The translations under genes were made by a program, and so were the position numbers. From NCBI GenBank assembly GCA_038060895.1, contig JBBTCT010000001.1, positions 160,001-224,000 on the forward strand: a stretch of 64,000 nucleotides of DNA. Reading direction: 5' to 3'. Positions 27,603-47,268 of this stretch are shown in pieces. The stretch comes from Planctomycetota bacterium. Its GTDB lineage: Bacteria > Planctomycetota > MHYJ01 > WSZJ01. Under the pieces are notes generated by a model. The model searched no databases. It had not been told where the DNA came from and saw only the letters and a list, made by a program, of their open reading frames with translations. Every line of letters begins with the position of its first letter. Position 1 is the stretch's first letter.

Positions 27603-27604
27603 GG

Positions 27605-28729
27605 CTACACGACGGCGGCGCTGACCGAAAGGACGGGGGGCAGGTACGAGGCGAGTGCCTTCCAGGAGCGCCCGGCGTCCGCGCTGTTGAAGACCTGGCC
27701 GGTGCCGGTCCCGACGTAGAGGCCGCACGGGTCCAGGGAATCGGACGACATTCCCTCGCGCAGGACATTGAGGTACGCGCCGCTTGCCGGCAGTCCCTTG
27801 GACATGGACTTCCAGCCGCCGCGCGGTCCGTTCCAGCGGAACACGCGGAACGCCCCGCTCGTGGCGCGGTAGGCGTAGTTGTTCTTCTTCTCGAGCGGGA
27901 CCGTGAAGCATGTATCGGGGTCGTTCCAGTCGAGAGCGAGCCCGAATCCGTAGTCCGTCGGGAGCCCCATCTCAATCGAATTCCAGGTCTCGCCGTGGTC
28001 GTCCGTGCGGAAAACGCCGACGTGATTCTGCTGGTACGCGCGCCCCGGCACCGCCGGGTGCAGAATGAGTTTGTGCACTCAGGTCCCGACGTCCGTGACC
28101 TTCGGCGCGCCGGGATACTTCGCGACCGCCTTGTTGATCGGCTTCCAGTTCTTCCCCCCGTCGTCCGTCCGGAACGCCCCCGCGGCCGAAATCGCCACGT
28201 ACATCCGCTTCGAATCGTGCGGGTCGAGCTGGATCGTGTGGCAGCACATCCCGCCCGCTCCCGGGCTCCACTGCTTCCGCGTCGGGTGCTCATTCAGGCC
28301 CGGCACCGGCTCCCAGGTCTTCCCTTCGTCCTCGCTCCGGAACAACCCCGCGGGCGCCGTCCCCGCGTACAGCACGCCCTTCTCCCCCTTCCGACCAGGC
28401 TCGATGTGCCAGACCCTCTCGGCCTTCGAGATGCCCCATTTCTTGTAGATCTTTTCGTGGGACGGAAGCGGCTTCGGCGGAATCGGCGGCTTCTTCGCGC
28501 CTGTGAACTTCGCGTCCTTCAGGCCGGCGCTGAAAGTAGAAGCGGCGAACACGTCGCTGACCGCGGCGGCGTGGATCTTCGGCGAGCGGCGGGCATCGAC
28601 GGTGGCGTGGTAGATCGACCATCCCTCGAGGAACGGTCCGCGCCGCTTCCACTCGCGGCGCTTTGCGGACGACTCGAACACGAACAGCCCGCGCTTGGTG
28701 CCGACGCAGACGACGACCTTGTCCGCCAT
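27605..28729 (-). CDS. BNR/Asp-box beta-propeller protein, predicted selenoprotein (Sec at codon 217)
   Basis: ORFs 28079..28729 and 27605..28078 are the same frame, separated only by TGA 28081-28079. Asp-boxes lie on both sides (RSEDEGKTW, RTDDGGKNW, RTDDHGETW, SADAGRSW). DVGT-U-VHK corresponds to the family's recalled EVGHCVH motif. SECIS-like hairpin follows. Confidence 0.85.
28042..28061 (-). promoter_or_regulatory. Putative bacterial SECIS element (BNR gene)
   Basis: GC(A)CCCGGC-GGU-GCCGGG-GC hairpin; loop starts 27 nt after the UGA. Confidence 0.7.
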
Positions 28730-28798
28730 GAAAGCCTCCGGGATTCTCGGTTCGGTGTGAGGTTACGCGACGAGGTAGCGCATGGATTCTCTCCGCTC

Positions 28799-29224
28799 CT
28801 ACTCGGACTTTGCTTTCTTCTCACGCATCGCATCCACGCTCATCGGCCCGGAACCCTTGCAGGCCATGAACAGGAAGAGGAAGCAGTAGAGCACCGCCGG
28901 TTCGCCGCCGTTCGTTCCGGGGAGGAACCTCGAGATGCCCTCCACCTTGCTGTTGACGACGTGGAACTGCCAGTAAGCGACGGCCATGGTGCCGCTGGCG
29001 AGGAAGGCGGCCGTGCGGCCGAAGAAGCCGATGGCGATCATGAGGCCTGTCACCAGCTCGATGATCCCGCCGGCCTTTCCCTGCGAGTCCAGCTGCGAGA
29101 ACGACATCTTCGAGAGCACGCCGAAGACTTTTTGCATGCCGTGAAACGCGAACATTCCGCCCGAGACGATGCGAACCAGGGCGTAAACGCGGTCCGCTAT
29201 GGGAGCCAGCATGGAACCCAGCAT
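28799..29224 (-). CDS. DoxX family membrane protein
   Basis: RIVSGGMFAFHGMQKVFG, AGGIIEL, AAFLASGTMAVAYW, NGGEPAVLYCF. Confidence 0.9.
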   Translation of the reverse strand: MLGSMLAPIADRVYALVRIVSGGMFAFHGMQKVFGVLSKMSFSQLDSQGKAGGIIELVTGLMIAIGFFGRTAAFLASGTMAVAYWQFHVVNSKVEGISRFLPGTNGGEPAVLYCFLFLFMACKGSGPMSVDAMREKKAKSE

Positions 29225-29461
29225 GTATCCCTCCTCCGTTCAGGCATTGGCGCGATTCACGAGTGCTCAGGAACATCCCGCGGCGAATGAGGCTCCCTTT
29301 TACCCTGAAGCGCCCTCAACGTCACGGTCAGGTTCCCGTGAAGTCGGAGGTCGGGCCAGAAGCAGGGTGGAGCTGCCCAGGGAAGTTCGCCGGTGATTTC
29401 GCGGACTTCCGCGTCCGCCGCGCTGCAATACCGCTCTCGCGCTTATGATCGCCGGCAAAGA

Positions 29462-29998
29462 ATGAAGCGCCGCAAGCCCCCGCAGGACCACACCTCCGCC
29501 GCTCCCCCCGAGATCGCCTGCCGCGTCATCGGCCACGTGCGTTCCCCCTACAAGGAGCGCTTCGGCACCCCGCGCCAGCCGTCCGTCACCGAGCAGACGC
29601 TCGAGGACCGCGCGCTCGAGGCGAGCATCGAGCTCCTCCCGGGGCAGAACTTTGAGCAGGCCCTCAAGGACCTCGCGGGATTCGAATACATCTGGGTGCT
29701 CGCCTGGCTGCACCTGAACGAGGGATGGAACCCGCAGGTGATTCCGCCGCGCGGTCCCGAGGTCAAGCGCGGGCTCTTCGCCACCCGCGCGCCGCACCGG
29801 CCAAATCCCATTGCGCTTTCGGCTCTTCGGCTCGTCGGCATCGAAGGCCGGATCCTCAGGATTTGCGGCATCGACCTGCTCGACGGCACGCCGGTGCTCG
29901 ACATCAAGCCCTACATTCCCTATTCCGACGCGTTTCCGGACGCGAAGGCCGGCTGGCTCGAAGGGTTGGATCCCGGCGCACCCGACCGGTGGAAGTAA
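29462..29998 (+). CDS. trmO: tRNA m6t6A37 methyltransferase TrmO/TsaA family
   Basis: IGHVRSPYKERFGTPRQ, GLFATRAPHRPNPI, GIDLLDGTPVLDIKPY. Confidence 0.9.
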   Translation: MKRRKPPQDHTSAAPPEIACRVIGHVRSPYKERFGTPRQPSVTEQTLEDRALEASIELLPGQNFEQALKDLAGFEYIWVLAWLHLNEGWNPQVIPPRGPEVKRGLFATRAPHRPNPIALSALRLVGIEGRILRICGIDLLDGTPVLDIKPYIPYSDAFPDAKAGWLEGLDPGAPDRWK

Positions 29999-30007
29999 AG
30001 GGACCGG

Positions 30008-31063
30008 CTACTTCGCCTTCTCCCACGCCGCCTTCAACGACTCCGCAGCCGCCGTTGCCTCGTCCACGGCCGCCTGCGCCCGCTTGATCTCCGCTTCCAG
30101 ATCCACGATCTCCGTCTCGGCGGCGGACTTTTCCGTTTCGATCGCCTTGAGCCGGACCTGCGCTGCTGATTTCTCGACCGCCAGGTCGGTGGACGTTTTC
30201 TTGACTGCCGTGAGCGCCTTCGATTCCTTCTCCGCGGCGGTACGCGCCGCGATCAGTTTCTTCTCGGCGTCCTTCATCGCCGGGCTGGCGTCCTTCGGCG
30301 GATCGCCCTCCTTCGGCTTCTCCTTCTCCTGGACCGCGACGAGCTTGTCCGAAGCGGCCTTGACCTTGCCTTCTGCGGCCGCGACGCGTTCTAGCACCGC
30401 AGCCTGGTCGGCCGTCGCCTTGACGATCAGTTTCTCGATGCGCTCGATGTTCGTCCGCTCGGCGGACGCGCGCGTTTCGATCTTCTTGACCTTCCCGGAG
30501 CCCCCGCCCAGCGCGGACTTCGCGGCGTCCCGCGCCGCCGCCAGGGTCGCGACCTCCCTCAGCCCCATCCGGTACGCATGCTCCGCGGGGGAGCACCAGC
30601 GGTTCTCGAATTTGATGTACCCGATGGAAGGGTAGTACGTGTCGGGGTCCCGCCAGTGGCCGTCCACCAGGTGGTAGTCCTGCTTCGTCAATTCGGCCGG
30701 GATTCCTTCCAGCTTCGGGTCGATCTTCCACGCGGCAATCAGGTGCTGGACCGCCTGGTCCGGAAGATCGCGCCCGCCCGCCCAGCGGCCAAGATCGAAC
30801 TGCGAAACCGCATTGTTCGGATCGAGCTTCGCAAGCCGCTCCTTGTACTCCTCTTCCGGCGTCGGCTTCTCCACGACCGAAGCCACGTCCTTGTGCTCGA
30901 GCGTCATCGTCCCCTTTTTCATCTTGATCTTCAGCGTCTTGCCGTCGTCCTCCAGAACCTGCCCCTCCAGGACGCGACCGTCCTTGAGGGTCACGACGTC
31001 GGCGGCCGCGAAACGGGCGGCACAGACAACGAAAATCGCGGCGCGCAGGGGATGGCACTTCAT
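30008..31063 (-). CDS. Secreted hypothetical protein with coiled-coil C-terminus
   Basis: Signal peptide, DVVTLKDGRVLEG beta-domain, A/K/E-rich heptad tail. GGAGG SD. Confidence 0.8.
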   Translation of the reverse strand: MKCHPLRAAIFVVCAARFAAADVVTLKDGRVLEGQVLEDDGKTLKIKMKKGTMTLEHKDVASVVEKPTPEEEYKERLAKLDPNNAVSQFDLGRWAGGRDLPDQAVQHLIAAWKIDPKLEGIPAELTKQDYHLVDGHWRDPDTYYPSIGYIKFENRWCSPAEHAYRMGLREVATLAAARDAAKSALGGGSGKVKKIETRASAERTNIERIEKLIVKATADQAAVLERVAAAEGKVKAASDKLVAVQEKEKPKEGDPPKDASPAMKDAEKKLIAARTAAEKESKALTAVKKTSTDLAVEKSAAQVRLKAIETEKSAAETEIVDLEAEIKRAQAAVDEATAAAESLKAAWEKAK

Positions 31064-31136
31064 GCGGTCCTCCAGGCAGTTCGGGACGTGAAGCGGGCAG
31101 GGCTGTCCGCCGGCGATCTTATCAGCCGGAAGCCCT

Positions 31137-31607
31137 TCAAGCCCCGAGCAGCTTTTCCATCATCCCGTTCTGGGCCGAGTAACCGAGGTCCTCGTAGAGA
31201 GCGATCGCCCCGGCATTCGTTGCGTGGACGACCAGCCGCAGGAGGCCGATCCCCTGGCCCCGGGAACGCCGCTCGACCTCCGCAAGAAGCGCCCGCGCGA
31301 TGCCGTGCCGCCGTTCGCTCGCGAGGACGAACACCATCGCGACCTCCGTGAACTTCGGGCCGTGCAGGCCGTCGCCGTCCGATCGCACGCCCGCATGGAT
31401 CCACGCGATCACGCCGGCGCCGGCGTCGGCGACGATCCAGAATTCGGCAGGGTCGGCGATGTCGACCGCGAAGACGGCGGAAGCGTCGCGCAGGAAGCGC
31501 AGGCGCTCCGGGGAATGGCCCAGCGCATCGGGGAGGTCTATGGCACTCTCGCGGAGGCCGCGGACGGCCGCAAAGTCGCGCAATTCGGCGGAGCGGACGA
31601 GAAGCAT
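31137..31607 (-). CDS. GNAT N-acetyltransferase
   Basis: VFVLASERRHGIARALL (motif A), NAGAIALYEDLGY. Start uncertain. Confidence 0.8.
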   Translation of the reverse strand: MLLVRSAELRDFAAVRGLRESAIDLPDALGHSPERLRFLRDASAVFAVDIADPAEFWIVADAGAGVIAWIHAGVRSDGDGLHGPKFTEVAMVFVLASERRHGIARALLAEVERRSRGQGIGLLRLVVHATNAGAIALYEDLGYSAQNGMMEKLLGA

Positions 31608-31946
31608 GCAGGCGATCAATCTGATGGTGTCGGGCGGAAGGCCCGTGGGAAGCCGCCCGCACTGTACGCTTCCGGATTGCAAATCGTTTATACAAATTGT
31701 CCTGACGGATTCTCTCGAACATATCCACCTTCGTCGTTCCGTTCAAGGATCCGCAACCGTCGTTCATGGTGGGACCTGCCTGGCAAACTCACCCGACCCC
31801 TTGCTGCTCTCATTCTTCACGCGGTCTGGTCTTTCCCGGCGCCTGAACCGGGTCCACCGGTCCGCGGGATTCGAACTCGCGCTCTACGAAGACATCCCCT
31901 GCGGCCACGCTGCCGGACGGGCGATTCCGCTCGCTCCCTGAGGCCG

Positions 31947-32819
31947 CTACCCCTTCGGACGCCAATGCCCGGCAATCATGTCCTCCGTGTAACCTCCGGC
32001 CACCTGCCCGGTCGAGGCGTAGCGGTAAAGCGCGACGTGGAAAACGCCCTGAAGGGCCGCTGACACGACGGCCAGGGCGATCCAGTAGAACAGGACGGCG
32101 CCCCCGATCATGACGGCGACGGGAATTCCAAGGGCGCCCTGGGAGCCCAGGTAGATCGCAAAACCGATCGGGAGCAGGCCGATCATGAAGAGCATCCCGA
32201 AGAACAATCCCATTCCACCTTCCCCGACGACCGCCTCGCCCCAGGTTTTCTTGAAGAGCTCCCCGGATCGCGTGATGGCGCGGCCGACGCCGGCCCCTTC
32301 AAAGATCATGACCGGCACCGCAAAGTACGTGAGCAGCGACCAGGCGAGACCGAGAAGCGAGGTGATGATCTTGCCGACAAGCCCCGACTTTTCAGAGATG
32401 ACCCTCAGGACCATCCCGACGGTCGCAGCGACCAGCGCCCACATGAAGATCGGGCCGACGTTCGCGAAAGCCCCCCGGAATCCGTCCGCAACGGTCGGAT
32501 CGCCGCCGTCCATCCGCTTCGCGGCGCAGTGCATCACGCCGACGTTGAAGAAGATCGTGATGAAGTAGCTGACGAGGTAGAAGAGGAACGAGTAGGCGTA
32601 CCACGCCGCCTCGATGTGGACCTTCGAGTCCTGCGGCTGCCCGGCCGGAGCCTGAGGCTGATTCACTCCGAACACGATGACCGGGACAATGAAGGACGCG
32701 GCAACCAGGAGTGAGGCGAGCGCCGAGAGCACCGGGAAGATCATGATCTCCTTGTCCTGCCGGAGGACGGCCCAGCTGTGGGTGACGAGCTGGTAGCTGC
32801 GTGAGAAGCTTCCGAACAT
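31947..32819 (-). CDS. Integral membrane protein (DUF6159-like)
   Basis: SWAVLRQDKEIMIFP, RSGELFKKTWGE, ALYRYA; about six hydrophobic segments. Confidence 0.8.
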   Translation of the reverse strand: MFGSFSRSYQLVTHSWAVLRQDKEIMIFPVLSALASLLVAASFIVPVIVFGVNQPQAPAGQPQDSKVHIEAAWYAYSFLFYLVSYFITIFFNVGVMHCAAKRMDGGDPTVADGFRGAFANVGPIFMWALVAATVGMVLRVISEKSGLVGKIITSLLGLAWSLLTYFAVPVMIFEGAGVGRAITRSGELFKKTWGEAVVGEGGMGLFFGMLFMIGLLPIGFAIYLGSQGALGIPVAVMIGGAVLFYWIALAVVSAALQGVFHVALYRYASTGQVAGGYTEDMIAGHWRPKG

Positions 32820-32977
32820 GGGCGCTCCTGGAATGGAGAACAGGGCGATGTCGATCGATGGGAGAAAACGCTCCTCCCTTCACCACACACATTCCGTGCC
32901 GTTTCGGCTCCTCCTCAGGAGCTCCGCCAGGTCCCCGCAATCGTACACCGCTGTCCCCCGTGGTGCGTAACTGCGCA

Positions 32978-33955
32978 TTACTTCCCCGAGCCCTCGTCGG
33001 ATCCTTCGCTCCCGGTCGTCGTCTCCATCGGACCCATCACCCGGAGCTCAACCTCGCCGCCATCGCCGCCGTTCAGCTTCGGCCGGAGCTTTTCATCGGT
33101 GACGCGATAGAACCCCTTCGGCACGTCGCTCTGCTGGAATGTCAGCTGTGTGATGCGCACGGGGTTGAAGTCCACCTTGGCGTCGAGAACGTTTCGGAGA
33201 AGCGCGGGGTAGTCGGTCCACCGGAGTTTCTGCAGGCAGATGACCTGGCCGCCGCCGACGATCTTCGCTTTCTTGAGGTCCACCTTGTCCACGTGCGTCA
33301 TCAGGCCGCTTCCGCGCGAGTCGATCGTCCCTTCGAGCATCCCCAGAACGACGACCTCGGAGAGCCGGAACAGGCCGCTCGCCTCAACCGACTGCCTGCG
33401 AGCAACCGTTTCGAGAGTCCCGTCCCCTTTCTCCACCGGCGGATCTTTCGGCGCCTCACCGTCTTTCACGACCTCGTCCACCGGCTTCCCGGGGAACCAC
33501 CCGACCACCAGCAAACACCGCCCGTGCGCCGCGTCGGCGCGGTCGTGATTGGCCGTGACGTCACCGTAGCTCGATCCGCCGATGATGACCGTGAAGGGGC
33601 ACATCGCCTCGATCGTCCCTGAGAAGTTCGCGCCGATCAGGATGACCCCGCCCTTTTTTTCGATTCTGATGGAGCCGTTCACCGTCCCCTTCACGTACAG
33701 CGTCCCCGCAGCCAGCGCAATGTCGCCTTTCACGCTGTCCGCAACGTAAACCCCCTCCGCAAGCTTCTGCGGCTTCTCGACCGCGCCCAGTTTCTTCGCG
33801 TCGTCGCCGGGAAGCGCGGGCAGGTCCTTGACCTGGTGCTGGCACGGGCACCCGAATCCCGCGGTCGGACCCTCGGCCTTTTCAAGGCCGGCCGGGACCT
33901 TGTCCTGGGCGTGCGCGATGAGTGCGAGGAGTGGGAACAGCAGCAGGGATCTCAT
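32978..33955 (-). CDS. Secreted hypothetical protein, Gly-rich beta-solenoid-like
   Basis: Signal peptide (LIAHA), repeated short G-x-I beta motifs. AAGGAG SD. Confidence 0.7.
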   Translation of the reverse strand: MRSLLLFPLLALIAHAQDKVPAGLEKAEGPTAGFGCPCQHQVKDLPALPGDDAKKLGAVEKPQKLAEGVYVADSVKGDIALAAGTLYVKGTVNGSIRIEKKGGVILIGANFSGTIEAMCPFTVIIGGSSYGDVTANHDRADAAHGRCLLVVGWFPGKPVDEVVKDGEAPKDPPVEKGDGTLETVARRQSVEASGLFRLSEVVVLGMLEGTIDSRGSGLMTHVDKVDLKKAKIVGGGQVICLQKLRWTDYPALLRNVLDAKVDFNPVRITQLTFQQSDVPKGFYRVTDEKLRPKLNGGDGGEVELRVMGPMETTTGSEGSDEGSGK

Positions 33956-34159
33956 GAGGTCTCCTTCGATTCAGTAGCCTTGTTTTCCACCTTCGAACGA
34001 ACCGGAAGCATAGCGCAATTCGCTCAGGCCACGATTCGGCCTTTGTACAATCGCGGGCATGCTTCCCTGGTCCTGGAACAAGCTGTACCGGACGCGTCCG
34101 GAGAAGCTTCCGCGGCACTCCGGATCGGCGGAGCCGTGGGCGCTTTTCGCGAAACGACG

Positions 34160-35446
34160 TTGAAGCCCTTCCGCTCGGCCCGCGCCGCGCTCGCCTACCT
34201 GTCGCGCTTCACCAATTACGAGAAGACGCCGCCGAAGGGGCGACGGACGCCGTACGACCTGGCCCGGATGCGGCGGCTGTGCGAAGCGCTGGGGCATCCT
34301 GAGAGGGCGTTCGCGGCGTATCACGTGACGGGGACGAAGGGGAAAGGCTCGACGGCGCATTATCTGGCGGCGGCGTTCGGGGAAAACGCGGGGCTGTATA
34401 CGTCTCCGCACCTCTCGTCGATGCTGGAGCGGATCCGGGTCGGCGGTTGCCCTGTGTCGGGAAAGCGGTTCGCGGCGCTGATGACGCGCGTGGTCGCGAA
34501 ATCCGAGACGGCCCCCGGTGAGTTCGCGACGTACTTTGAACTCATGACCGCCTGCGCGTTCGAGGCGTTTCGCGGGTGCGGCGTGGCGGTCATCGAGGTC
34601 GGGCTCGGCGGCAGGCTTGACGCCACCAACGTCCTCCCGGCGCCGCTGGCCTGCGGGATCACTTCGATCGACTGGGACCACATGGACCGGCTCGGCAACA
34701 CGCTGGAGAAAATCGCGGCGGAAAAGGCCGGGATCGTCAAGCCGGGCGCCGTCGTCGTGACGGCTGAGCGCAAGCCCGGCCCGCTCGGCGTGATCCGGCG
34801 GGCCGCGGCGCGCGCCGGGTGCCGGCTGCTGATCGTGGGAAGGGAGGTTCGGATCGACGAAGCGGTCTCCGACGGGCGGGACCGGTGGAGCGCGACACTT
34901 TCGATGAAGGGGTCGCCGTCCATGCGCGTTACGCTCGCGACGCCGGGCCGGCACCAGCTCGACAACTTCGCGGTCGCCTGGGCGATGGCGCAGTCCACCG
35001 CGCCGCTGCCCGCCGCGCACTGGCGCGCTGCGGCCTCCGTCCAGATCCCCGCGCGCCTGCAGCTGTTCCCGGGCGCGCCCCCCGTCCTCCTGGACGTCGC
35101 GCACAACCCGGTCTCCCTGCGCGCCCTCGCCGTCCACCTGGCCCGCGCGTTCCCGCGGCGCCGCACCGCGCTCGTCTTCGGAACGTCGTCCGACAAGGAT
35201 GTCGCTGCCAATGTGGAAGCGGTCGCCGGCGCCGCGGACGCGCTCTTCTTCGCGGCCGCCCGCCATCCGAGGGCGTCTGACCCCGCCACGCTCCGGGCGC
35301 TGGCCGGCCGCGGCGAGGCGTTCGCGAACGCACGGCGCGCTCTTGACGCAGCGCGTCAATATGCCGGAAAACGCGGGCTCGTCGTCGTCGCCGGCTCGTT
35401 TTACCTCGCCGGCGACCTGCTGCCGTCGATCCGCCGGCGCCCGTAG
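34160..35446 (+). CDS. folC: Folylpolyglutamate/dihydrofolate synthase
   Basis: HVTGTKGKGST, YTSPHL..ERI, EVGLGGRLDATNV, LGNTLEKIAAEKAGI, LDVAHNP, GSFYLAG. TTG start is approximate. Confidence 0.93.
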   Translation: MKPFRSARAALAYLSRFTNYEKTPPKGRRTPYDLARMRRLCEALGHPERAFAAYHVTGTKGKGSTAHYLAAAFGENAGLYTSPHLSSMLERIRVGGCPVSGKRFAALMTRVVAKSETAPGEFATYFELMTACAFEAFRGCGVAVIEVGLGGRLDATNVLPAPLACGITSIDWDHMDRLGNTLEKIAAEKAGIVKPGAVVVTAERKPGPLGVIRRAAARAGCRLLIVGREVRIDEAVSDGRDRWSATLSMKGSPSMRVTLATPGRHQLDNFAVAWAMAQSTAPLPAAHWRAAASVQIPARLQLFPGAPPVLLDVAHNPVSLRALAVHLARAFPRRRTALVFGTSSDKDVAANVEAVAGAADALFFAAARHPRASDPATLRALAGRGEAFANARRALDAARQYAGKRGLVVVAGSFYLAGDLLPSIRRRP

Positions 35447-35497
35447 CGGACGCCGTTCACTCGTCGCCTGCAACGCACCGCTGCTACACTGATCCCA

Positions 35498-37258
35498 ATG
35501 CCGCGCACCCCTTCCAACGAGGATCTTCTCGTCGGCCGAATCGCACTCGCCAGCGGGCTCCTCACGCGCGACAAACTCGACGAGTGCATCCACCTCTTCG
35601 AATCCTCGGAACTCCCCCCTACGCTCGGCGAGGTCTTCGTCGAGCGCGGCTACCTGACCCGCGAACGCCTCGCCATGCTCACCGCCGTCGTCGATCGCGA
35701 CCTCCCCGCCCCGGTCGCCGCTTCCCCGACGCCCGTCCCCCAGAAATCCATCACGCCCCTTCCGGATTCCCTCACCGAGTCCGCATTCTTCGGCAAGATC
35801 GCCATCCGCGAAAACCTCGTCACGCACGAGCAGCTCTTCGAGTGCCTGGACCAGCAGGTACGGCTCGAGAAGGAAGGCAAGGCGCGGCAGCTCGGCGAGA
35901 TCATGGTGGACAAGGGATACCTGAAGCTGGGCGACGTGACGCGGCTTCTGCGGTTGCAGAAGAAAGTGGTGATGAAGTGCCCCACCTGCGAGGCGTCGTT
36001 CACGGTCAGCGAGGAGCTGGCGAAGACGAAGCTGCCGTGCCAGCAGTGCAAGGCGCTGCTGATCCCCGTGAAGCGATTGGTGACGGCGCGGACGGAGACG
36101 ATTACGGCGACGGGGGCTGTGCAGGACTCGATCATCGGGAAGATGTTCAGCGGGGTGCAGGTGACGCAGCGCGTCGGGCGCGGCGGGATGGCGACCGTGT
36201 ACAAGGGAATCCACATCGCGCTGAACAAGCCCATGGCAGTAAAGATCCTGTCGGTTTCGGTGAAGGACCCGGACATGATCCAGCGCTTCGTGAAGGAAGC
36301 GCGGTCGGTGGCGAAGCTGGAGCATGCGAACATCGTGCAGGTCTACAACGTGGGGCAGAAATTCGGCTACACGTTCATCCTGATGCAGTTCATCGAAGGT
36401 CACACGATCGCGGAGATCCTGGACCACAAGAAGAAGATCCCTCCGGGGCAGGCGATCAAGATCGTGCGGGAGATTGCGAAGGGTCTCGGGTACGCGCACC
36501 GGATGGGCCTGGTGCACCGGGACGTGAAGCCGGACAACGTGTTCGTGACGGTGGACGGCGAGGTCAAAGTCGGGGATTTCGGGCTTGCGATCGAGACCAG
36601 GAGCGTGCGCAAGACGGACACGATCACGGGGACGCCCTACTACATGCCTCCGGAACAGTGGCGAGGCGACCCGCAGGACGGGCGCAGCGACATCTACTCG
36701 CTCGGCGTGACGTTCTATTACTTCGTGACGGGGAGACGGCCCTTTGAAGGCGAGGGCCCGATCATCCTCATGGAGCAGCACATGCACGAACGCCCGCGGA
36801 CGCCCGCTTCGCACAACCCCGACATCCCGCAGGGCGTCTCCGCCGTGATCATGAAAATGATCGCGAAAAAACCTGCGGACCGGTACCAGTCCGCCGAGGA
36901 ACTGCTTGCGGACCTGGAGCGGGTCGAAAGCGGCCGCGAGCCGCTGGCGCCGCCGGACCCCAGCGAAATGCTCACGTGCCGCTTCTGCCAGGCGCAGAAC
37001 AAGCCGACGGCGAAGAAGTGCATGGACTGCGGGGAGAATCTCGGCGCGAACATCGAGATGCTGCTGATGGACAACGAGTTCCAGTGCCCGAAGTGCCGGA
37101 ACGCGGTGACGATGGGAGTACGGATGTGCGAGTCGTGCGGCATGATGTTCTGCAAGTCGTGCAAGATCTCGCCGGTGGCGGCAGGGACGCAGTACTGCCC
37201 CCAGCATCAGGAGCCGCCGCCGCAGTTTCCGGAGCGCAGGCAGGTCCGGAAAAAATAA
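35498..37258 (+). CDS. Cytoplasmic Ser/Thr kinase with MshEN-like repeats and zinc ribbons
   Basis: GRGGMATV, HRDVKPDN, DFGLA, GTPYYMPPEQ. CxxC pairs before and after the kinase domain. Confidence 0.92.
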   Translation: MPRTPSNEDLLVGRIALASGLLTRDKLDECIHLFESSELPPTLGEVFVERGYLTRERLAMLTAVVDRDLPAPVAASPTPVPQKSITPLPDSLTESAFFGKIAIRENLVTHEQLFECLDQQVRLEKEGKARQLGEIMVDKGYLKLGDVTRLLRLQKKVVMKCPTCEASFTVSEELAKTKLPCQQCKALLIPVKRLVTARTETITATGAVQDSIIGKMFSGVQVTQRVGRGGMATVYKGIHIALNKPMAVKILSVSVKDPDMIQRFVKEARSVAKLEHANIVQVYNVGQKFGYTFILMQFIEGHTIAEILDHKKKIPPGQAIKIVREIAKGLGYAHRMGLVHRDVKPDNVFVTVDGEVKVGDFGLAIETRSVRKTDTITGTPYYMPPEQWRGDPQDGRSDIYSLGVTFYYFVTGRRPFEGEGPIILMEQHMHERPRTPASHNPDIPQGVSAVIMKMIAKKPADRYQSAEELLADLERVESGREPLAPPDPSEMLTCRFCQAQNKPTAKKCMDCGENLGANIEMLLMDNEFQCPKCRNAVTMGVRMCESCGMMFCKSCKISPVAAGTQYCPQHQEPPPQFPERRQVRKK

Positions 37259-37342
37259 GGGATCCCGGATCCCCGGTCCCCCCCTGTCCCACCCGCGCCC
37301 GAAATGGTTCAATCTCGCCCCGACGTCTGCCGCACTAAATGG

Positions 37343-37420
37343 CGGGGTGTAGCGCAGCCTGGTTAGCGCGCCACGCTTGGGACGTGGAGGTCGGCGGTTC
37401 GAATCCGCCCACCCCGACCA
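37343..37420 (+). tRNA. tRNA-Pro (UGG)
   Basis: Acceptor stem CGGGGTG/CACCCCG plus ACCA, anticodon arm CCACG-CTTGGGA-CGTGG, T-loop GTTCGAATC. Confidence 0.97.
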
Positions 37421-37454
37421 TTTGCGGATCCTTCCGGCTCTCGAGGCGCACCCG

Positions 37455-37910
37455 ATGGGACTGACTCAGAAGATCGCCGACGAAATGAAGGTCGCGATGA
37501 AAGCGAAGGACCAGTCGCGGCTCGACGCCCTTCGCCTCATCAAGGCCGCCCTCATGCACAAGGAAGTCGCTTCCGGCGTCCACAAAGAGCTGACGGAGGC
37601 GGAGGAGATTTCGGTGGTCCAGGCGCTGGTGAAGCAACGGAAGGACTCGATCGAGCAGTTCACGAAGGGGGGGCGACCGGAGCTCGCGGCGAAAGAGGCT
37701 GCGGAGCTGAAAATCGCCGAGGCGTTCCTGCCGGCGGGACCTTCGGACACGGAGCTATCCGCCGCGATCGAAGCCGCGGTGACGGAAACTTCGGCGACCG
37801 GCCCGAAGGACATGGGCAAAGTGATGAAGGCGCTCAAGGACAAGTTCGCAGGCAAGGCGGTGGACGGCGGAGCGCTTTCCGCGAAGGTCAAGGCCCGGCT
37901 GGGCGGGTAG
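37455..37910 (+). CDS. GatB/YqeY domain protein
   Basis: MKVAMKAKD, KQRKDSIEQF..GGRPELA, KDMGKVM. Confidence 0.93.
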   Translation: MGLTQKIADEMKVAMKAKDQSRLDALRLIKAALMHKEVASGVHKELTEAEEISVVQALVKQRKDSIEQFTKGGRPELAAKEAAELKIAEAFLPAGPSDTELSAAIEAAVTETSATGPKDMGKVMKALKDKFAGKAVDGGALSAKVKARLGG

Positions 37911-37982
37911 AATCCCGCCTCCCGGGAAGATCCGTTGCACGCCCGTTGTTACAGGTCCATCCCCCATGAAAGCGAGCCATCG

Positions 37983-38987
37983 ATGAGCAGGGTGTTTCTG
38001 GCCGCCGGAATCGCACTCGCCCTCTGCCGCGCCGCTTCGGCCGGCGGCATCGAGTGGATCGACAACGATTACGACAAGGCCGTCGCGAAGGCGAAGGAGG
38101 CCGGCAAACTCGTCCTCGTGCACTGGCGCAAGGACGGCTGCCACTGGTGCACCGATCTCCAGGAGAAGACGCTCGCGACCGACGATGTCGCGAAGTTTCT
38201 CGGCGAGACCTGCGTCAGCGTGCGAATGGACCGCGCGAAATACGGCCAGCTCGCGGAGAAATTCCACGTCGATGCCACCCCCGACACCCAGTTCCACTCC
38301 AGCGACGGGCGCGTCGTCAAACGCATCGTCGGATTCCTCCCGGCGGAGCAGTTCCTGGCGGAAGCGCAATCGGCGCCGGAAGCGTGGAAGCGGATTCAGG
38401 AACTCGAGGCCGCCATCGCCAAAGACGACAAGGACGCCGCTTCGAAGCTCGACCTGGGCCGTCTCCTGGCCGCGGCCGGTGATCTCGACGCGGCGGACAG
38501 GCACCTGCGCGCCGCCGCGGGCCTGGACACGGACAACGCGAAGGGGCTGGCGCTGGAAGCCTGGTGGACTATGGCGGACTCACGGATGCGCGAGCCGCGT
38601 CCGGACGTAGGTCTGGCCAAGGAAGCGCTCGCGAAAGTGCAGGAGCTGGACCCGAAGAACGAAAAGGGACGGATGGACAATGCGGCGGTGCAGCTCGCGC
38701 GCATCGAGCTCAATGCGGCGCCGAAGCTTGCAAAGGCCTCGCTGGAGAAAATCATGGCGGACTACCCCGGCACCGACGGGGCGGCAGAAGCGATGTTCGT
38801 CCTCGCGGCCGATGTCCTCGTCGATATCGACCGCAACTTCGACGCCGGGGAAGCTATGCTGAAGAAGCTCGCGGCGGAGATGCCTGAGGATCCGTGGGCG
38901 AAGCGCGTCCCGGCCGCCCTGGAACAACTCGCCGTCATCCGCAAGGAATCCACGAAGGACATCAAGAAAGAGGGAGAAGAAAAATGA
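37983..38987 (+). CDS. Exported thioredoxin-fold (CHWC) + TPR protein
   Basis: Signal peptide, IEWIDNDYDKAVAKAKEAGKLVLVHWRKDGCHWC, cis-Pro loop ATPDT, helical repeats. Confidence 0.88.
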   Translation: MSRVFLAAGIALALCRAASAGGIEWIDNDYDKAVAKAKEAGKLVLVHWRKDGCHWCTDLQEKTLATDDVAKFLGETCVSVRMDRAKYGQLAEKFHVDATPDTQFHSSDGRVVKRIVGFLPAEQFLAEAQSAPEAWKRIQELEAAIAKDDKDAASKLDLGRLLAAAGDLDAADRHLRAAAGLDTDNAKGLALEAWWTMADSRMREPRPDVGLAKEALAKVQELDPKNEKGRMDNAAVQLARIELNAAPKLAKASLEKIMADYPGTDGAAEAMFVLAADVLVDIDRNFDAGEAMLKKLAAEMPEDPWAKRVPAALEQLAVIRKESTKDIKKEGEEK

Positions 38988-39919
38988 AGCGCCTCCAACT
39001 CGCCGCCGCTTTCCTTGCCGCCGCCGCGATCGCGCGAGCCGACGGCGTGGACTGGGTGACCGACTACTCCAAGGGCCTTGAGAAGGCGAAGGAGTCCGGG
39101 AAACTCGTACAGGTGCACTTCACGGCCGACTGGTGAAACGCCTGCAAAGTCATGGATACGGATACGTATTCCAACGCCGACATCGCGAAGTACCTGAACG
39201 AGACTTTCGTCAACATCCGGATCGACACCGACAAAGACCCGGACACCGCGAAGAAGTTCAAGGTCCGCGCCATCCCGGACACCCGCTTCCTCGACTCCGG
39301 CGGGAAAGAGCTTCTGCGGATCATCGGACATCGCGCGGAGTTCTTCGACCAGGTGAAGTCCCTGGGTGAAATCGCGGCGGTTGAGTTATCGGTGAAAAAC
39401 AACCCGAAGAACGTCCCGACGCTGATCGCCGCTTCCATCGTTTACCTGAAGCTGGGCCGCATTGATGAAGCCGGCGCGCTGCTGGAAACGGCGATCGACA
39501 ACGACCGGGACAACGCGAGCGGAAAGCGCGAAGAGCTTTTTTACCGCCTCGGCCTCGTGAACATGAAGGCCGGGAACGATGCGAAGGCGGAGGCGGCGTG
39601 GGCGGAGGTCGGGAAAATGGACCCTGAGAACAAGAAGGGGTACATCGACGACCTGCAGTTCGACCGGTGCCTGAAGCAGACGGACGAGGAGGACTACCAC
39701 GGGGCGGAGCGTTCGCTGGGCGACTTTCTGAAGCGGTATCCGGACAGCGAGCACGTGCCGGAAGCCCGCTACCTGCTCGGCATGTCGCAGTTCTTCATGG
39801 AGAAGCGGGAAGACGCGGTTTCGACATGGAAGGACCTGATCCGCGAGAAGCCTGACACGGACGCGGCGAAGAAAGCGGAGAAGGGTCTGAAGTTCGCGGA
39901 GAAGAAAACGAAGAAGTAG
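38984..39919 (+). CDS. Exported thioredoxin-fold (UNAC) + TPR protein, predicted selenoprotein (Sec at codon 51)
   Basis: ATG 38984 overlaps the upstream stop. HFTADW-TGA(39134-39136)-NACKVM continues in frame into ORF 39152..39919. UxxC aligns with CHWC of the adjacent paralog. SECIS-like hairpin follows. Confidence 0.9.
39153..39173 (+). promoter_or_regulatory. Putative bacterial SECIS element (UNAC gene)
   Basis: UGGAUACG-GAUA-CGUAU(U)CCA hairpin; loop starts 25 nt after the UGA. Built from GAT/TAT synonymous codons that are uncommon in these genes. Confidence 0.75.
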
Positions 39920-39935
39920 AGCGGGCAGAATCCAG

Positions 39936-39969
39936 CGGGGCCGGCTCGTCGCCGGCCCCGTTTTGTTTT
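39936..39969 (+). terminator. Intrinsic terminator
   Basis: CGGGGCCGGC-TCGTC-GCCGGCCCCG followed by TTTTGTTTT. Confidence 0.8.
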
Positions 39970-39983
39970 GAGGGAGTGAGACG

Positions 39984-40532
39984 ATGCCCCGCCCCGCCGT
40001 CTTCCTGGACCGCGACGGAGTCCTCTGCGAGGACCGGACGGACTACGTGAAGTCGTGGTCGGAGTGGCGCTGGGTGCCAGGGGCGCTGGAGGGAGCGGCG
40101 GCGCTGGCGCGCGCCGGAAGGCTCCTGGTAGTGATCTCGAACCAGGCGTGCGTGGGCAAAGGAATTGTCGCGCGCGTGACGCTCGACGACATCCACGGCC
40201 GGATGAAGGACGACCTTGCGGCCGCGGGAGCGCCCCTGGCCGGGATTTACGTCTGCCCGCACACCGACGCCGACGCCTGCGCCTGCCGCAAGCCGAAACC
40301 GGGATTGCTCCTTGCTGCCGCCCGGGAACTCGACCTCGACCTCGCCGCGTCGGCGTTCATCGGCGACAACCTCCGCGACCGCGACGCCTCCACCGCCGCC
40401 GGAGTCGGCCGCTTCGTCCTCGCCCTTACGGGCCAGGGGGAGCGCTGGGCGGCGGAGGGGGCGGCGCAGGGGATTCCGCTCGAGACGGCGCCGGACCTGG
40501 TGGCGGCGGCGAGGGTGATCCTGGCGCCTTAG
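39984..40532 (+). CDS. gmhB: HAD-IIIA phosphatase, heptose-1,7-bisphosphate phosphatase-like
   Basis: FLDRDGVL, ISNQ, CPH...CACRKPKPG, IGD. Confidence 0.88.
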   Translation: MPRPAVFLDRDGVLCEDRTDYVKSWSEWRWVPGALEGAAALARAGRLLVVISNQACVGKGIVARVTLDDIHGRMKDDLAAAGAPLAGIYVCPHTDADACACRKPKPGLLLAAARELDLDLAASAFIGDNLRDRDASTAAGVGRFVLALTGQGERWAAEGAAQGIPLETAPDLVAAARVILAP

Positions 40533-40959
40533 CCGATGTTTTTTTTTCGCCCCGCTTCAACCCGGCCTGTTCCAGCCTCGTAACGACCGCTTCCCTGTTT
40601 CCGCGGAACCGCAGGAACAACCCGCGGAACGGGTCCAGCGGAGACGGCGACTCGAAGGGCGAGAGGTGGACGCCGATGGAGTGCGCGTAGAAGCGGCGGT
40701 ACCGGGTCCACGGCGCGCGCGTCGTAAGTCCGCAGAACCGGACTGAGATCGCGTCGGGGCGGAGCTCGTAGGCGGTCGGCAGGAACCACTTTCCCAGTGA
40801 AGCCGGGAGCAGGACCGCCGCGAGCCAGCCGAGATGGCCGAAGACGAGGAAGAACAGTGCGATGATTCCCGCGAGGGTCAGGACTTTGAGCGCCGCGCGC
40901 GGACCTTCGTCGCGGAGGGGCCACGCGGTCCAGGCGAGCGCTTCAGGATGCCCGGTCAT
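40426..40959 (-). CDS. Small membrane protein; 3' end uncertain (may be 40529)
   Basis: Two hydrophobic helices then FLPTAYEL, GVHLSPF...LDPFRGLFL. ATG overlaps the ridA stop. Confidence 0.75.
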   Translation of the reverse strand: MTGHPEALAWTAWPLRDEGPRAALKVLTLAGIIALFFLVFGHLGWLAAVLLPASLGKWFLPTAYELRPDAISVRFCGLTTRAPWTRYRRFYAHSIGVHLSPFESPSPLDPFRGLFLRFRGNREAVVTRLEQAGLKRGEKKTSAKAPGSPSPPPPGPAPSRAESPAPPPPPPSAPPGP

Positions 40960-41336
40960 GCCTTTGCGATGACGTCGATCTCGACCGCGGCGTCCTTCGG
41001 GAGCCGGGCGGCCTGGATGGTGGCGCGGGCTGGCGGATCCTTGGCGAAGTACTCGGCGTAGGCCGCATTCATCGCGGCAAAGTCGTTCATGTCCTTCAGG
41101 TACACCGTGGTTTTGACGACCCGGTCGAGGCCGCTTCCCGCCGCGGCAAGCACAGCCTTGAGGTTCTCGAGGGCGCGCCGCGTCTGCGCGCCGGTGTCGC
41201 CGGCGACCATCTGGCCCGTGGCGGGATCGAGGGGGATCTGGCCGGAAGCGAAGACCCAGCCGTCCATGACGACGGCCTGGGAGTAGGGGCCGATCGCCTG
41301 AGGTGCGCCGGGGGTGCTGACGGTCTTGCGGCTCAT
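40956..41336 (-). CDS. ridA: RidA/YjgF enamine deaminase
   Basis: APQAIGPYSQA, SGQIPLDP, PPARATI..ARLPK...VEID. Confidence 0.95.
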   Translation of the reverse strand: MSRKTVSTPGAPQAIGPYSQAVVMDGWVFASGQIPLDPATGQMVAGDTGAQTRRALENLKAVLAAAGSGLDRVVKTTVYLKDMNDFAAMNAAYAEYFAKDPPARATIQAARLPKDAAVEIDVIAKA

Positions 41337-42412
41337 CGCGTGTTCTCCGCGTCTGCGCGCAGCTTCGCGTCGGCGAGGACGCAGGCCACGCAGGCCTCCA
41401 CGATCGGCACGGCGCGCGGGACGACGCAGGGGTCGTGCCGCCCTTTCGTTTCGATGACGGCGGGTTTCATGGTCGCGAGGTTGACCGTGTCCTGCTTGCG
41501 AGGGAGCGAACTGGTCGGCTTGAACGCGACGCGAGCGACGAGCGGCATGCCGGTCGAGATGCCCCCGAGGATGCCGCCGGAATTGTTCGTGCGCGTCGTG
41601 ACGTGCCCCGCGTGGTCGACGTCGAACGCATCGTTGTGATCGCTTCCCTTCATGCGCGCCGCCCGGAAGCCTGCGCCGAACTCGACCCCGCGGGCGGCGG
41701 GGATGGCGAGCAGCGCGCGGGCCAATTCGGATTCGAGCCCGTCGGCGCCGGGGCCGCCCCAGCCGGCGGGCAGGCCCTGGGCCCTGACCTCGACGACGCC
41801 GCCCACGGAGTCCGCTTCGGACCGGGCCCTGGTGATGGCGTGCTCCATCAGTTCGGCCGTGCTGGGATCGGCGCAGCGCGTCGGGTGCGCTTCGGCCGCC
41901 GCGAGCGAGGAGAACGGGATCTCGTGCGGAACCTCGATCCCCGCGATCTCGACCACGTGCCCCGCGATCTTCACGCCCGCCAGAATCTGCCGCGCGATCG
42001 CCCCTGCGGCCACGAGCGGCGCCGTCGTCCGGGCCGAGAACGGTCCGCCCCCGCGGTGATCCCGCGCGCTTCCCCACTTGGCCCACGCCGTGAAGTCCGC
42101 GTGCCCCGGCCGCGGCAGGTCCTTCGTCGCGTCGTAGGGCCGCGAGTCGACGTCCGTGTTCCGGATGAAGATCGTCAGCGGCGCGCCGGTCGCCGCGCCG
42201 TGCATCAACCCCGCGAGAAACTCCGGCTCGTCCTCTTCCTTCCTCTGCGTCGTCAGCTTCGACTGACCCGGCCGCCGCCGCGCCAGCTCGTGACGCATCG
42301 CGTCCATGTCGAGTTTGAGACCCGCGGGAACGCCCTCCACCACGGCGCCGACACCCGGTCCGTGGCTCTCGCCGAACAACGTCACGCGGAAAATCGTCCC
42401 CAGCGTGCTCAA
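41333..42412 (-). CDS. aroC: Chorismate synthase
   Basis: FGESHG, RRPGQS, PRPGHAD, RGGG.FSAR, NNSGGILGGISTG, GRHDPCV. Confidence 0.96.
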   Translation of the reverse strand: MSTLGTIFRVTLFGESHGPGVGAVVEGVPAGLKLDMDAMRHELARRRPGQSKLTTQRKEEDEPEFLAGLMHGAATGAPLTIFIRNTDVDSRPYDATKDLPRPGHADFTAWAKWGSARDHRGGGPFSARTTAPLVAAGAIARQILAGVKIAGHVVEIAGIEVPHEIPFSSLAAAEAHPTRCADPSTAELMEHAITRARSEADSVGGVVEVRAQGLPAGWGGPGADGLESELARALLAIPAARGVEFGAGFRAARMKGSDHNDAFDVDHAGHVTTRTNNSGGILGGISTGMPLVARVAFKPTSSLPRKQDTVNLATMKPAVIETKGRHDPCVVPRAVPIVEACVACVLADAKLRADAENTR

Positions 42413-43215
42413 CGCAGGCCTTCTTTCTGGAAGCGCTTCAGCGCGGCCTCGTCGCCCTTCCTCAGGGCCATCGCGAGTCCGCGCAGGTCGTCGCCCATTC
42501 TCTCCAGCGCGGCGGCAACGTGGAAGCGGTTCGCGAGGAGGAGGTCGAGGGACATCGCGGCGGGCTGGGCCGCGACGCGCGTGGCGGAACGGAAGGAGCC
42601 GGCGGCGAGGCGGGCGGCGAGAGGGCCGCCCTTTCGACCGAGCCTTACAAGAGCGAGCGCGAGAGCATACGGCAGGTGAGAAATGAGTGCGACGGCGCGG
42701 TCATGGGCTTGTGCGGTGACGACGAGCGGGACGGCGCCGAGCTGCACCACGAGCTTCTTCATGGCCGGCAGGGCCGCGCGATCTCCCGGCACGAGCGCCC
42801 AAGTCGCCCCCTTGAACAGCGCCGGGTCCGCCGCCTCGATCCCTCCCCGCTCCGTGCCGCACATCGGGTGGCCGCCGACGAATCCGCGCACGCCGCGGAA
42901 CGCGCGCATGATCCCGGCTTTCGCCGAGCCGACGTCCGTGATGCGCGTGCCGGGAAGCTGCAGCTCCGCGATCTTCCACGCAAGCGACTGGATCGTCCGC
43001 ACCGGCGTCGCCAGGACCACGAGGTCCGCTCCCGCGACAGGCCAGAGATTCTGCGCCGTCTCCGTGCACGCGCGCCGGCGAAGCGCCCGCCGCAGGACCG
43101 CAGGGTCGCTGTCGATCCCCACGACGCGCCTTGCCAGCCGCCGCGTGAGCAGCGCCATGCCGAGCGATCCGCCGATGTGGCCCATGCCGACGATGACGAC
43201 GCTGGCAGGTTTCAT
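42409..43215 (-). CDS. tyrA: Prephenate/arogenate dehydrogenase
   Basis: GMGHIGGS Rossmann motif, TDVGSAK, GGHPMCGTE, HDRAVALISHLP. Confidence 0.93.
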   Translation of the reverse strand: MKPASVVIVGMGHIGGSLGMALLTRRLARRVVGIDSDPAVLRRALRRRACTETAQNLWPVAGADLVVLATPVRTIQSLAWKIAELQLPGTRITDVGSAKAGIMRAFRGVRGFVGGHPMCGTERGGIEAADPALFKGATWALVPGDRAALPAMKKLVVQLGAVPLVVTAQAHDRAVALISHLPYALALALVRLGRKGGPLAARLAAGSFRSATRVAAQPAAMSLDLLLANRFHVAAALERMGDDLRGLAMALRKGDEAALKRFQKEGLR

Positions 43216-43592
43216 TTCAGGTAAGTCATCTCGCCGCCGCCCCAGGACCAGTTCTCTTTGGGGACCTCGACGAGGCTGATGACGATGTCCTCCCGGTTCA
43301 CGCCGGCGCCCGCCAGCAAGTCCGCGATCTTCGCGTAAAGCGCACGCTTCAATTCGACCGTCCGCCCCGCGTTCATCGTCACCTGGATCACGACAATTCC
43401 GTCCGATTTCGGCATCCCCATGTAAGAAGGCGGGTGGACAAGCCCCTCCGGCCCGTGCTCCGTGATGACCTGGAATTTCCCGTCCGCAGGCGCACTCACC
43501 GCCTCGACCAGCGCACGGTGCACCGCGTCGCCGATGGCTTTCACCGCCGCCGGCGGGCGCCCCGAACGCATCGAGATCCTCACGAGCGGCAT
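43212..43592 (-). CDS. Tautomerase superfamily protein (MSAD-like)
   Basis: N-terminal catalytic Pro (MPLVRI), GRTVELKRALY, ENWSWGGG. Confidence 0.9.
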   Translation of the reverse strand: MPLVRISMRSGRPPAAVKAIGDAVHRALVEAVSAPADGKFQVITEHGPEGLVHPPSYMGMPKSDGIVVIQVTMNAGRTVELKRALYAKIADLLAGAGVNREDIVISLVEVPKENWSWGGGEMTYLK

Positions 43593-43608
43593 CGTTCCAC
43601 CCCCTCTC

Positions 43609-43644
43609 AAAACAGAACGGGGAGGCCGGCGAACCGGCCTCCCC
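43609..43644 (-). terminator. Intrinsic terminator-like hairpin
   Basis: Minus strand GGGGAGGCCGG-TTCG-CCGGCCTCCCC followed by GTTCTGTTTT. Confidence 0.75.
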
Positions 43645-43663
43645 GGATTGAGCCGTCCATTCG

Positions 43664-44587
43664 CTACTTCGGGTCCTTCTCCGACTTCAGCTTCTTCAGG
43701 GTCTTCTCCTTCGCGTCGAAAAACCCTTTCGCCTGCGGGTTGTCCCCGAACATCGCCTTCAGCCCGTTCAGCGCAGCCTCGAAACCCGCCGCGTCTTTCT
43801 CCTTCTCCGAGTAGTTCAGGATCGCCATGTAAAACGTCTGCCCGACTTCCTTGTCCGTCGGCGCACGCTTCGCCTTCAGCATCTCCATGAACTTCTTCGC
43901 GGTCGCCGCCTCCTGCTCGTCCAGAATCTGCTGGACCTCGGCGTTCGCCAGCGCGCCGTTCAGCCGCGGCTCCTGCTCCGCCGACGGCTTCGGAAGATCC
44001 TTCAGCTTCTTCTTCGCCTCGTCCGCCTTGATGGCGCCCGTCTCCAGCTTCCCGATCAGCACCTCCAGCGCAGCGGCTTTGTCCCCGCCTTCCGCCTTCT
44101 TCACCATCGCAATGAATGACTCGGCCTTTTTCAGTGCTTCCGAGAACGTGTCCACCGTGTACGGCCGATCGAACTTCGAGATCACTTCCCCCGCCGAGTC
44201 CAGGTACGCCATGTACGGAAACCCGTCGCCGCCCTTCGCCTCGAACAGCTCCTGGTACTGGTCCTCTTCGACGTGCGACGTGATGTGCAGGAAAAGAACC
44301 ACCTTGGAAGCGAACGTCAGGAATTCTTCAGAGGAGAGCGTACCGCCCTCCAGGCTGTTGCACGGCCCTCAGGGGGCGTAGGAACGGGTGAAATACACGA
44401 GCATCGGCTTGCCGGATTTCTTCGCTTCCTCGCGAGCCTTGTCGTAGTCGAGGAGCCAGTGACCTTTTTCGATGAAGGGCTCTTTGAGCTTCTTGTCGCG
44501 CTTGTCTTCGAGGTCGCCTGCGGTGGCGCGGGCGCCGAGGAGGGCGACCAGCGCGGCCACGAGCGGCAGCAGTTTCAGGTTCGTCAC
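43664..44587 (-). CDS. Exported thioredoxin-fold (UGPC) protein with helical C-terminus, predicted selenoprotein
   Basis: GTG 44587 after a GGAG SD, signal peptide, WLLDYDKAREEAKKSGKPMLVYFTRSYAP-TGA(44371-44369)-GPCNSLE. Continues in frame for 22 codons into ORF 43664..44302 (GFP cis-Pro loop). SECIS-like hairpin follows. Confidence 0.9.
44333..44351 (-). promoter_or_regulatory. Putative bacterial SECIS element (UGPC gene)
   Basis: GGAGGGCG-GUA-CGCUCUCC, an 8-bp hairpin with one G-U pair; loop starts 26 nt after the UGA. Confidence 0.78.
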
Positions 44588-44698
44588 AAGCCTTCTCCGA
44601 CGGGGGAGGAAATGCCGGCCGGGCGGGGGCGTCTGGGCCCCCTGGAAGCCCGCATCGGCGCGTGGCATCCTAAACACGGAACGCCTATCGGATAATCC

Positions 44699-46102: not shown

Positions 46103-46124
46103 CGTCGAGGCGAAGCGATCGCGT

Positions 46125-47254: not shown

Positions 47255-47268
<14 letters not shown>
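46480..47268 (-). CDS. trpA: Tryptophan synthase alpha subunit
   Basis: [36 protein letters not shown]. Confidence 0.97.

Follow-up and report, generated by a model that had tools for sequence, protein, structure and literature searches.

Three reading frames interrupted by UGA

The stretch of DNA analysed here, which we call the window, comprises 64,000 nucleotides from a Planctomycetota bacterium (contig JBBTCT010000001.1, positions 160,001 to 224,000) with a GC content of 63-70%. The names of homologues and the nearest genomic relatives assign it to uncultured Planctomycetota/Planctomycetia. It contains three genes in which a TGA codon lies inside the coding frame at a position where homologues carry cysteine, and each of these codons is followed by a small hairpin that resembles a bacterial selenocysteine insertion sequence (SECIS). 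When the open reading frames (ORFs) of the window were translated with TGA read as a residue, three pairs of neighbouring open frames fused. The first fusion is a gene for a BNR/Sortilin-Vps10-type beta-propeller of 374 amino acids, predicted to be cytoplasmic, on the minus strand at 27605..28729; its TGA (28079..28081, minus strand, inside frame 28729..27605) would place selenocysteine (Sec, U) at residue 217 in the motif G-T-U-V-H-K. The second, at 38984..39919 on the plus strand, encodes a putatively exported protein with a Thioredoxin_7/DsbH domain, a tetratricopeptide repeat (TPR) region and the active site W-U-N-A-C, the TGA standing at 39134..39136 (plus strand) inside the frame 38984..39919. 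The open frame around this codon reaches back to 38894 (plus strand), and the likely start is the ATG at 38984, which overlaps the TGA stop of an upstream paralogue in the tetranucleotide ATGA. The third, at 43664..44587 on the minus strand, encodes a putatively exported Thioredoxin_7-like protein whose active site reads A-P-U-G-P-C and whose C-terminal half is helical, and is interrupted at 44369..44371 (minus strand, inside frame 44587 or 44677..43664). The start of this last gene is uncertain: a GGAG-like site precedes the GTG at 44587, the likely start, but the frame stays open as far as a GTG at 44677.

Coding character is maintained across all three codons. The GC content at third codon positions is 0.85-0.89 both before and after each TGA, and codon-position GC is gene-like on either side. 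A compositional scan for additional in-frame TGAs returned 11 candidates, and only these three were credible; the same-frame TGA junctions at 24210, 25918, 59482, 60304, 9813 and 58159 read as ordinary stops followed by new genes with starts or signal peptides of their own. TGA also terminates 19 ordinary genes of the window, including rnc, mfd and trpB, and the genetic code is therefore not reassigned. A first-pass annotation, made from the letters of this DNA, had placed TGA codons at 28081 (minus), 39134 (plus) and 44371 (minus), each interrupting a single coding frame, and these coordinates are exact. It had also supposed that gene callers fragment such genes, which is what the databases contain: the window's own three genes are stored as pieces of 216, 255 and 212 amino acids, and the propeller gene is divided by gene callers into 216 and 157 amino acids, the 216-residue pieces being named 'hypothetical protein' by NCBI.

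The minimum-energy folds of the 60 nucleotides 3' of each TGA include a hairpin with a short loop beginning with G. Hairpin 1 (28041..28062, minus strand) has a 6-bp core stem at 28044-28058, CCCGGC/GGU/GCCGGG (-10.3 kcal/mol), extended by three more pairs with a bulged A; its loop G lies at +27, a UGA-to-loop spacing of 26 nucleotides. Hairpin 2 (39154..39171, plus strand) is a 7-bp stem, GGAUACG/GAUA/CGUAUUC, with the loop G at +25 and a spacing of 24 nucleotides. Hairpin 3 (44333..44351, minus strand) is an 8-bp stem, GGAGGGCG/GUA/CGCUCUCC (-11.8 kcal/mol), with the loop G at +26 and a spacing of 25 nucleotides. Stems of 6-8 bp with loops GGU, GAUA and GUA at these offsets are precisely the structures that the first-pass annotation had described, and its further claim that only shape and spacing are shared also holds, the three stem sequences being unrelated. 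The published bacterial SECIS model, as set out in PMC13188914 (Fig. 2), allows a loop of 3-9 nucleotides, a stem of 4-16 bp, a G in the first two loop positions and a spacing of 16-37 nucleotides, with a minimum free energy threshold of <= -7.5 kcal/mol. All three hairpins lie within the loop, stem, apical-G and spacing limits given there, and those of sites 1 and 3 pass the energy threshold.

The geometry is infrequent in the surrounding DNA. A narrow criterion, requiring a contiguous stem of at least 6 bp and a loop of 3-4 nucleotides beginning with G at +25..+27, selected 9 of the 1268 TGA triplets on both strands of the window. Three of these nine are the sites themselves; the others (16825+, 21773+, 22915+, 36008-, 15974- and 13621-) are out of frame, antisense or intergenic by frame arithmetic. 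The same geometry follows 123 of 18354 in-frame codons, none of the 219 in-frame Cys codons of the window and none of the 19 ordinary TGA stops, a comparison that the first-pass annotation had put forward and that we made by setting the listed stops against the nine scan matches. Across the window and the relatives described below, the loop G falls at +25 to +27 in nine of nine Sec-TGA instances, which belong to four genes.

Cysteine homologues, orthologues and tandem paralogues

All three in-frame codons fall on cysteine columns, as had been claimed for them at the outset. A search with the propeller gave 7988 matches among 8000 candidates scored, and among the best 120 of these every full-length homologue (101/101) has Cys at the TGA column, within an invariant G-[TS]-C-V-H-K motif. 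Also among the best 120 are 13 further homologues of 216-245 amino acids that stop exactly one residue before that column. For the thioredoxin-like protein with TPRs, the window's W-U-N-A-C corresponds to W-C-G-P-C in three of three full-length homologues, and four other matches are 255-residue fragments that begin directly after the codon. The other thioredoxin-like protein has a single full-length homologue, with A-P-C-P-P-C against A-P-U-G-P-C in the window (1/1), and five other matches that are C-terminal fragments. Pfam finds Thioredoxin_7, DsbH and Thioredoxin in this pair, with Sec at the first CxxC position (U-N-A-C and U-G-P-C), and the U of both proteins aligns with the first CxxC cysteine of solved thioredoxin folds (2kuc, 6x0b and 2ju5). 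By eye, the N-termini of both look like signal peptides, and both proteins end in long tails of TPRs or helices.

Relatives of the locus were found through the FolC gene that lies between the sites, in species-representative genomes. This gave 79 loci, of which L001-L007 are close (71-85% FolC identity), and the comparison covered each locus with 10-kb flanks. Synteny between the window and these seven loci, from related Planctomycetota metagenome-assembled genomes (MAGs), is partly retained, and tblastn similarity crosses the TGA, for example with 71% identity over 374 amino acids for the propeller of L004. That propeller orthologue has a TGA in the same column followed by an identical core hairpin; its minimum-energy fold picks a different structure, and the centroid contains the hairpin. 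At site 2 three orthologues (L007, L002 and L005) retain the TGA, and L003 has TGC there. The hairpin is kept in all three Sec orthologues: L007 and L002 have G-C in place of a G-U pair, and L005 has G-U in place of an A-U pair together with a GAGA loop, so that pairing is retained while the encoded peptide changes from MDTDTY to MDAETY. At site 3 the TGA is kept in L007, where the hairpin GAGAGCG/GUA/CGCUCUC lies at the same offset with a G-U to A-U change. In the Cys-form TPR protein of L003 (around 14954-15013, plus strand) a weak 5-bp remnant with a 6-nucleotide loop, GGACG/AGGAGA/CGUUC, stands in the hairpin's place; it was read by eye and lies outside that sequence's minimum-energy fold. 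Such a remnant is as expected if Sec had recently been replaced by Cys, or the reverse.

Immediately upstream of the Sec gene for the TPR protein is a Cys-containing tandem paralogue (37935..38987, plus strand) with the motif G-C-H-W-C, which has no hairpin at the position equivalent to the SECIS. In L005 the corresponding gene encodes Sec (W-U-H-F-C), has the loop GAUU at +25 and makes up the fourth Sec gene; the orthologues in L007, L002 and L003 are Cys forms. Over 37935-39919 (plus strand) of the window a Cys form (G-C-H-W-C) is thus followed by a Sec form (W-U-N-A-C), the two being joined by ATGA. Both members of the pair are Sec forms in L005 (9100-11035), and both are Cys forms in L003. 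For the propeller, a quick tree of its N-terminal part, in which 12 of the 14 Sec rows were assigned as Sec from truncation alone, gives at least five Sec/Cys changes for those 14 rows and places two Cys forms within the main Sec group. The tandem Cys/Sec paralogues, with Cys forms nested among Sec forms, would make this lineage a compact natural case of Sec/Cys interconversion.

Selenocysteine and the competing explanations

Judged by position, conservation and hairpin geometry, the three TGAs are very likely selenocysteine codons, each accompanied by a bacterial SECIS inside the coding sequence. Each UGA would be read as Sec with the help of an in-ORF hairpin whose small apical loop starts with G, 24-26 nucleotides past the codon. 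Following the established mechanism, SelB-GTP-Sec-tRNA(Sec) would bind this loop with the ribosome positioned at the UGA, and would deliver Sec instead of allowing termination. The fixed distance may reflect how the ribosomal A site and the loop bound by SelB are placed relative to each other, which would explain the spacing and shape common to three unrelated stems. Two of the products would be exported oxidoreductases of the thioredoxin fold, with Sec standing in for the attacking Cys of CxxC, and the third would be a cytoplasmic BNR propeller in which Sec replaces an invariant Cys near an invariant His.

Several observations weigh against this interpretation. No selA, selB or selD was found among the 111 ORFs of the window (43 + 68) scanned with NCBIfam models, where the first-pass annotation had likewise seen no sel gene, or among the 121 ORFs of the seven close loci. 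No selenocysteine tRNA (tRNA-Sec) was found in the window or in those loci either, tRNA-Pro being the only tRNA found. On the supporting side, complete sets of Sec-insertion genes are reported for other Planctomycetes (PMC4807772). Rfam gave no SECIS family, either at gathering thresholds or at E up to 10 over 27900-44500. The contiguous stem of hairpin 2 has an energy of -6.7 kcal/mol, above the -7.5 threshold; it reaches -7.4 with a bulge and -9.1 in the local fold. The 60-nucleotide folds are no more stable than shuffled sequences (z = -1.33, -0.37 and -0.09 for sites 1, 2 and 3), and with such non-significant scores we rejected thermodynamic stability as evidence, so that the argument rests on position, loop identity and conservation instead. 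The generic SECIS model, in its contiguous-stem version, is passed by 124 of the 1268 TGA triplets (9.8%) in this 67% GC DNA. The narrow criterion is post hoc, having been taken from the three sites themselves, and the control counts obtained with it therefore overstate significance. Orthologues are few (one, three and one for sites 1, 2 and 3), which leaves covariation support thin, and conserved amino acids, such as H-P-A-V-P-G-R at site 1, account for part of the hairpin conservation. The first-pass annotation had named equally good G-loop hairpins at +25 to +27 after ordinary stops among the findings that would undo its proposal. The narrow geometry separates the sites from all 19 stops; the generic model is passed by 2 of the 19.

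Most of these points bear on the alternative that survives best, which we nevertheless regard as improbable. It accepts the codons as Sec and takes the hairpins to be by-products of GC-rich coding sequence and conserved residues, with the true SECIS larger or shifted. The non-significant z-scores, the share of TGA triplets that pass the generic model, the weakness of site 2 and the preference of the L004 minimum-energy fold for another structure (though not of its centroid) are all consistent with this. Against it stand the position of the loop G, +25 to +27 in every one of the nine Sec-TGA instances across four genes, and the absence of this geometry after all 219 Cys codons and all 19 true stops. 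The L005 sequence at site 2 keeps its pairing despite the change of amino acids, and the Cys forms either lack the hairpin or have a remnant only, both of which also speak against it.

Read-through of UGA independent of any Sec system, by near-cognate Trp or Cys incorporation or through lineage-wide recoding, with the hairpins as mere stimulators, would account for the lack of Sec machinery in the window and the related loci. We consider it very improbable, since TGA serves as the terminator of the 19 ordinary genes mentioned above, every in-frame TGA falls on a Cys column of a redox motif, which is a signature of Sec, and the hairpins match the SelB-type model down to the apical G. Least credible of all is that the TGAs are real stops, whether nonsense mutations in pseudogenes, assembly errors or boundaries of split genes yielding two polypeptides: the genes are indeed stored as fragments and a single base change turns TGC or TGT into TGA, but the codon is kept in orthologues from several independent MAGs, 13 more propeller homologues break off at that column, both coding composition and protein similarity persist beyond it, and all three TGAs stand on catalytic or invariant Cys columns with a hairpin behind each.

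Selenocysteine decoding at these sites, which we favour, has two practical consequences. The databases then contain at least three of the window's genes, together with orthologues of these in several public MAGs, in split or truncated form, and the tight UGA-to-loop spacing could serve as a lineage-specific filter for GC-rich genomes, in which the generic model passes about 10% of TGAs.

The propeller family, its setting and known systems

Pfam assigns BNR and Sortilin-Vps10 to the propeller protein. Its AlphaFold model (pLDDT 93) is closest among PDB structures to 3b7f, with a TM score of 0.89 and a sequence match at E = 3.5e-63; GH74 and Ycf48 propellers are far behind, the GH74 matches having TM scores of about 0.3-0.58 at 14-18% identity. 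In an alignment of 62 propeller sequences C217 (the Sec position), H219, H148, H164 and H236 are invariant, and we infer that this Sec/Cys-His site could be a redox centre or a centre for handling metal or sulfur. A gene for a DoxX-family membrane protein (28799..29224, minus strand) lies directly upstream of the propeller gene, and one for a small ThiS/MoaD-like protein ending in ...ISGGSTS (27309..27590, minus strand) directly downstream; the trio of DoxX, Sec propeller and ThiS-like genes (27309-29224, minus strand) is also adjacent in L004 (1880-4177, minus strand). Three further residues follow the GG of the window's ThiS/MoaD-like protein (...ISGGSTS), and the ThiS-like frame of L004 continues into sequence that looks by eye like SRPBCC/AHSA1.

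The propeller with G-T-U-V-H-K is a candidate for a new selenoprotein family. Table 1 of a 2026 review lists 119 selenoprotein families and subfamilies (PMC13188914), and none of these 119 entries is a BNR, sialidase or propeller protein. The portion of the BSepDB supplement that we draw on has no BNR, sialidase, glycosyl or propeller entry. A literature search, which did not cover Deng et al. 2026 or Haft and Tolstoy 2025, found no selenocysteine paper naming exo-alpha-sialidase, and the papers listed that combine bacterial selenoproteins with beta-propellers concern other proteins, to judge by their titles and the openings of their abstracts.

These considerations raise the possibility, which we put forward tentatively and at somewhat less than even chances, that the G-[TS]-C/U-V-H-K propellers are an uncatalogued selenoprotein family and the first propeller-fold bacterial selenoenzyme, with a Sec/Cys-His centre that would act together with the ThiS-like carrier and DoxX in a sulfur or redox reaction, and that in this lineage exported thioredoxin-like proteins have switched repeatedly from Cys to Sec or back, with a SelB that accepts the loop G only at +25 to +27. 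Were this so, the rule for the loop G would be tight enough to enumerate the selenoproteome of the lineage, and the propeller family would add to bacterial selenoproteins a fold that is neither a thioredoxin nor dependent on a metal cofactor.

Other features of the window lie further from these genes. The Sec gene of the Thioredoxin_7-like protein sits between the genes for prephenate dehydrogenase and DAHP synthase, and has the same position near aroC in L007; the surrounding aromatic amino acid cluster (41333-58158) comprises aroC, prephenate dehydrogenase, DAHP synthase, aroH, trpA, B, F, C, D, G and E, aroD/E and aroK. Three large genes resemble Ser/Thr kinases or kinase/cyclases with TPR regions (9846-14042, minus strand; 18706-22362, plus strand; 35498-37258, plus strand). 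Of the three, the gene at 35498 carries a c-di-GMP-binding motif that is MshE-like, and it adjoins folC in seven of seven relatives. A c-di-AMP riboswitch of the ydaO/yuaA type (85.9 bits; 7621-7764, plus strand) stands before an amino-acid-transporter-like gene (frame 7686-9815), and a small ORF at 17305-17538 (plus strand) matches the Phd/YefM antitoxin family at E = 3.8e-13.

The canonical bacterial SECIS has its prototype in Escherichia coli fdhF. The Sec-UGA/SECIS pairs of the window are of this canonical kind, and the shape of their hairpins is that of an ordinary bacterial SECIS and is not new. They share with it, in the form of the bSECISearch model given in PMC13188914, an in-ORF hairpin 3' of the UGA, an apical G in first place and a spacing of 24-26 nucleotides, and the loops GG.. 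of site 1 and GU.. of site 3 match the G[G|U] pattern described there as common. They differ in two respects: the spacing in this lineage is very tight, with the loop G confined to three positions in all nine instances, and the site 2 loop, GAUA or GAGA, has A as its second base, with an energy that is marginal to the model.

The two thioredoxin-like proteins fit the known UxxC class of thioredoxin-fold selenoproteins (thioredoxin, PF00085, and thiol:disulfide interchange protein, PF13098; PMC13188914, Table 1). Like the members of that class they have a thioredoxin fold, Sec in place of the N-terminal Cys of CxxC, and homologues and paralogues in Cys form; unlike them, they pair a Thioredoxin_7/DsbH (DUF255) domain with a putative signal peptide, and their C-terminal half is long and made up of TPRs or helices. 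On this pair every NCBIfam selenoprotein model stays below its cut-off. The Trx7/PDZ model NF041199 gives 32 and 25 bits where 300 are required, its family motif is CxxU, and Pfam finds no PDZ domain in either protein; the TsoB model NF045694, a rhodanese/DsbD fusion, gives 57 and 19 bits against a cut-off of 805, and Pfam finds no rhodanese domain. Both assignments were rejected.

The propeller resembles the BNR glycoside hydrolases (sialidase, GH74) in fold and repeats only. Its best structural match is 3b7f, a 'putative glycosyl hydrolase with BNR repeats' (Reut_B4987), with which it shares the same beta-propeller fold and BNR/Asp-box repeats. The two differ at the site of interest, where 3b7f has Asp at the Sec column, while Cys and several His residues are invariant in the G-[TS]-C/U-V-H-K subfamily. 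If the proposal made above for this subfamily is right, the invariant motif Cys/Sec-x-His would point to an active site in the structural-genomics family to which 3b7f belongs.

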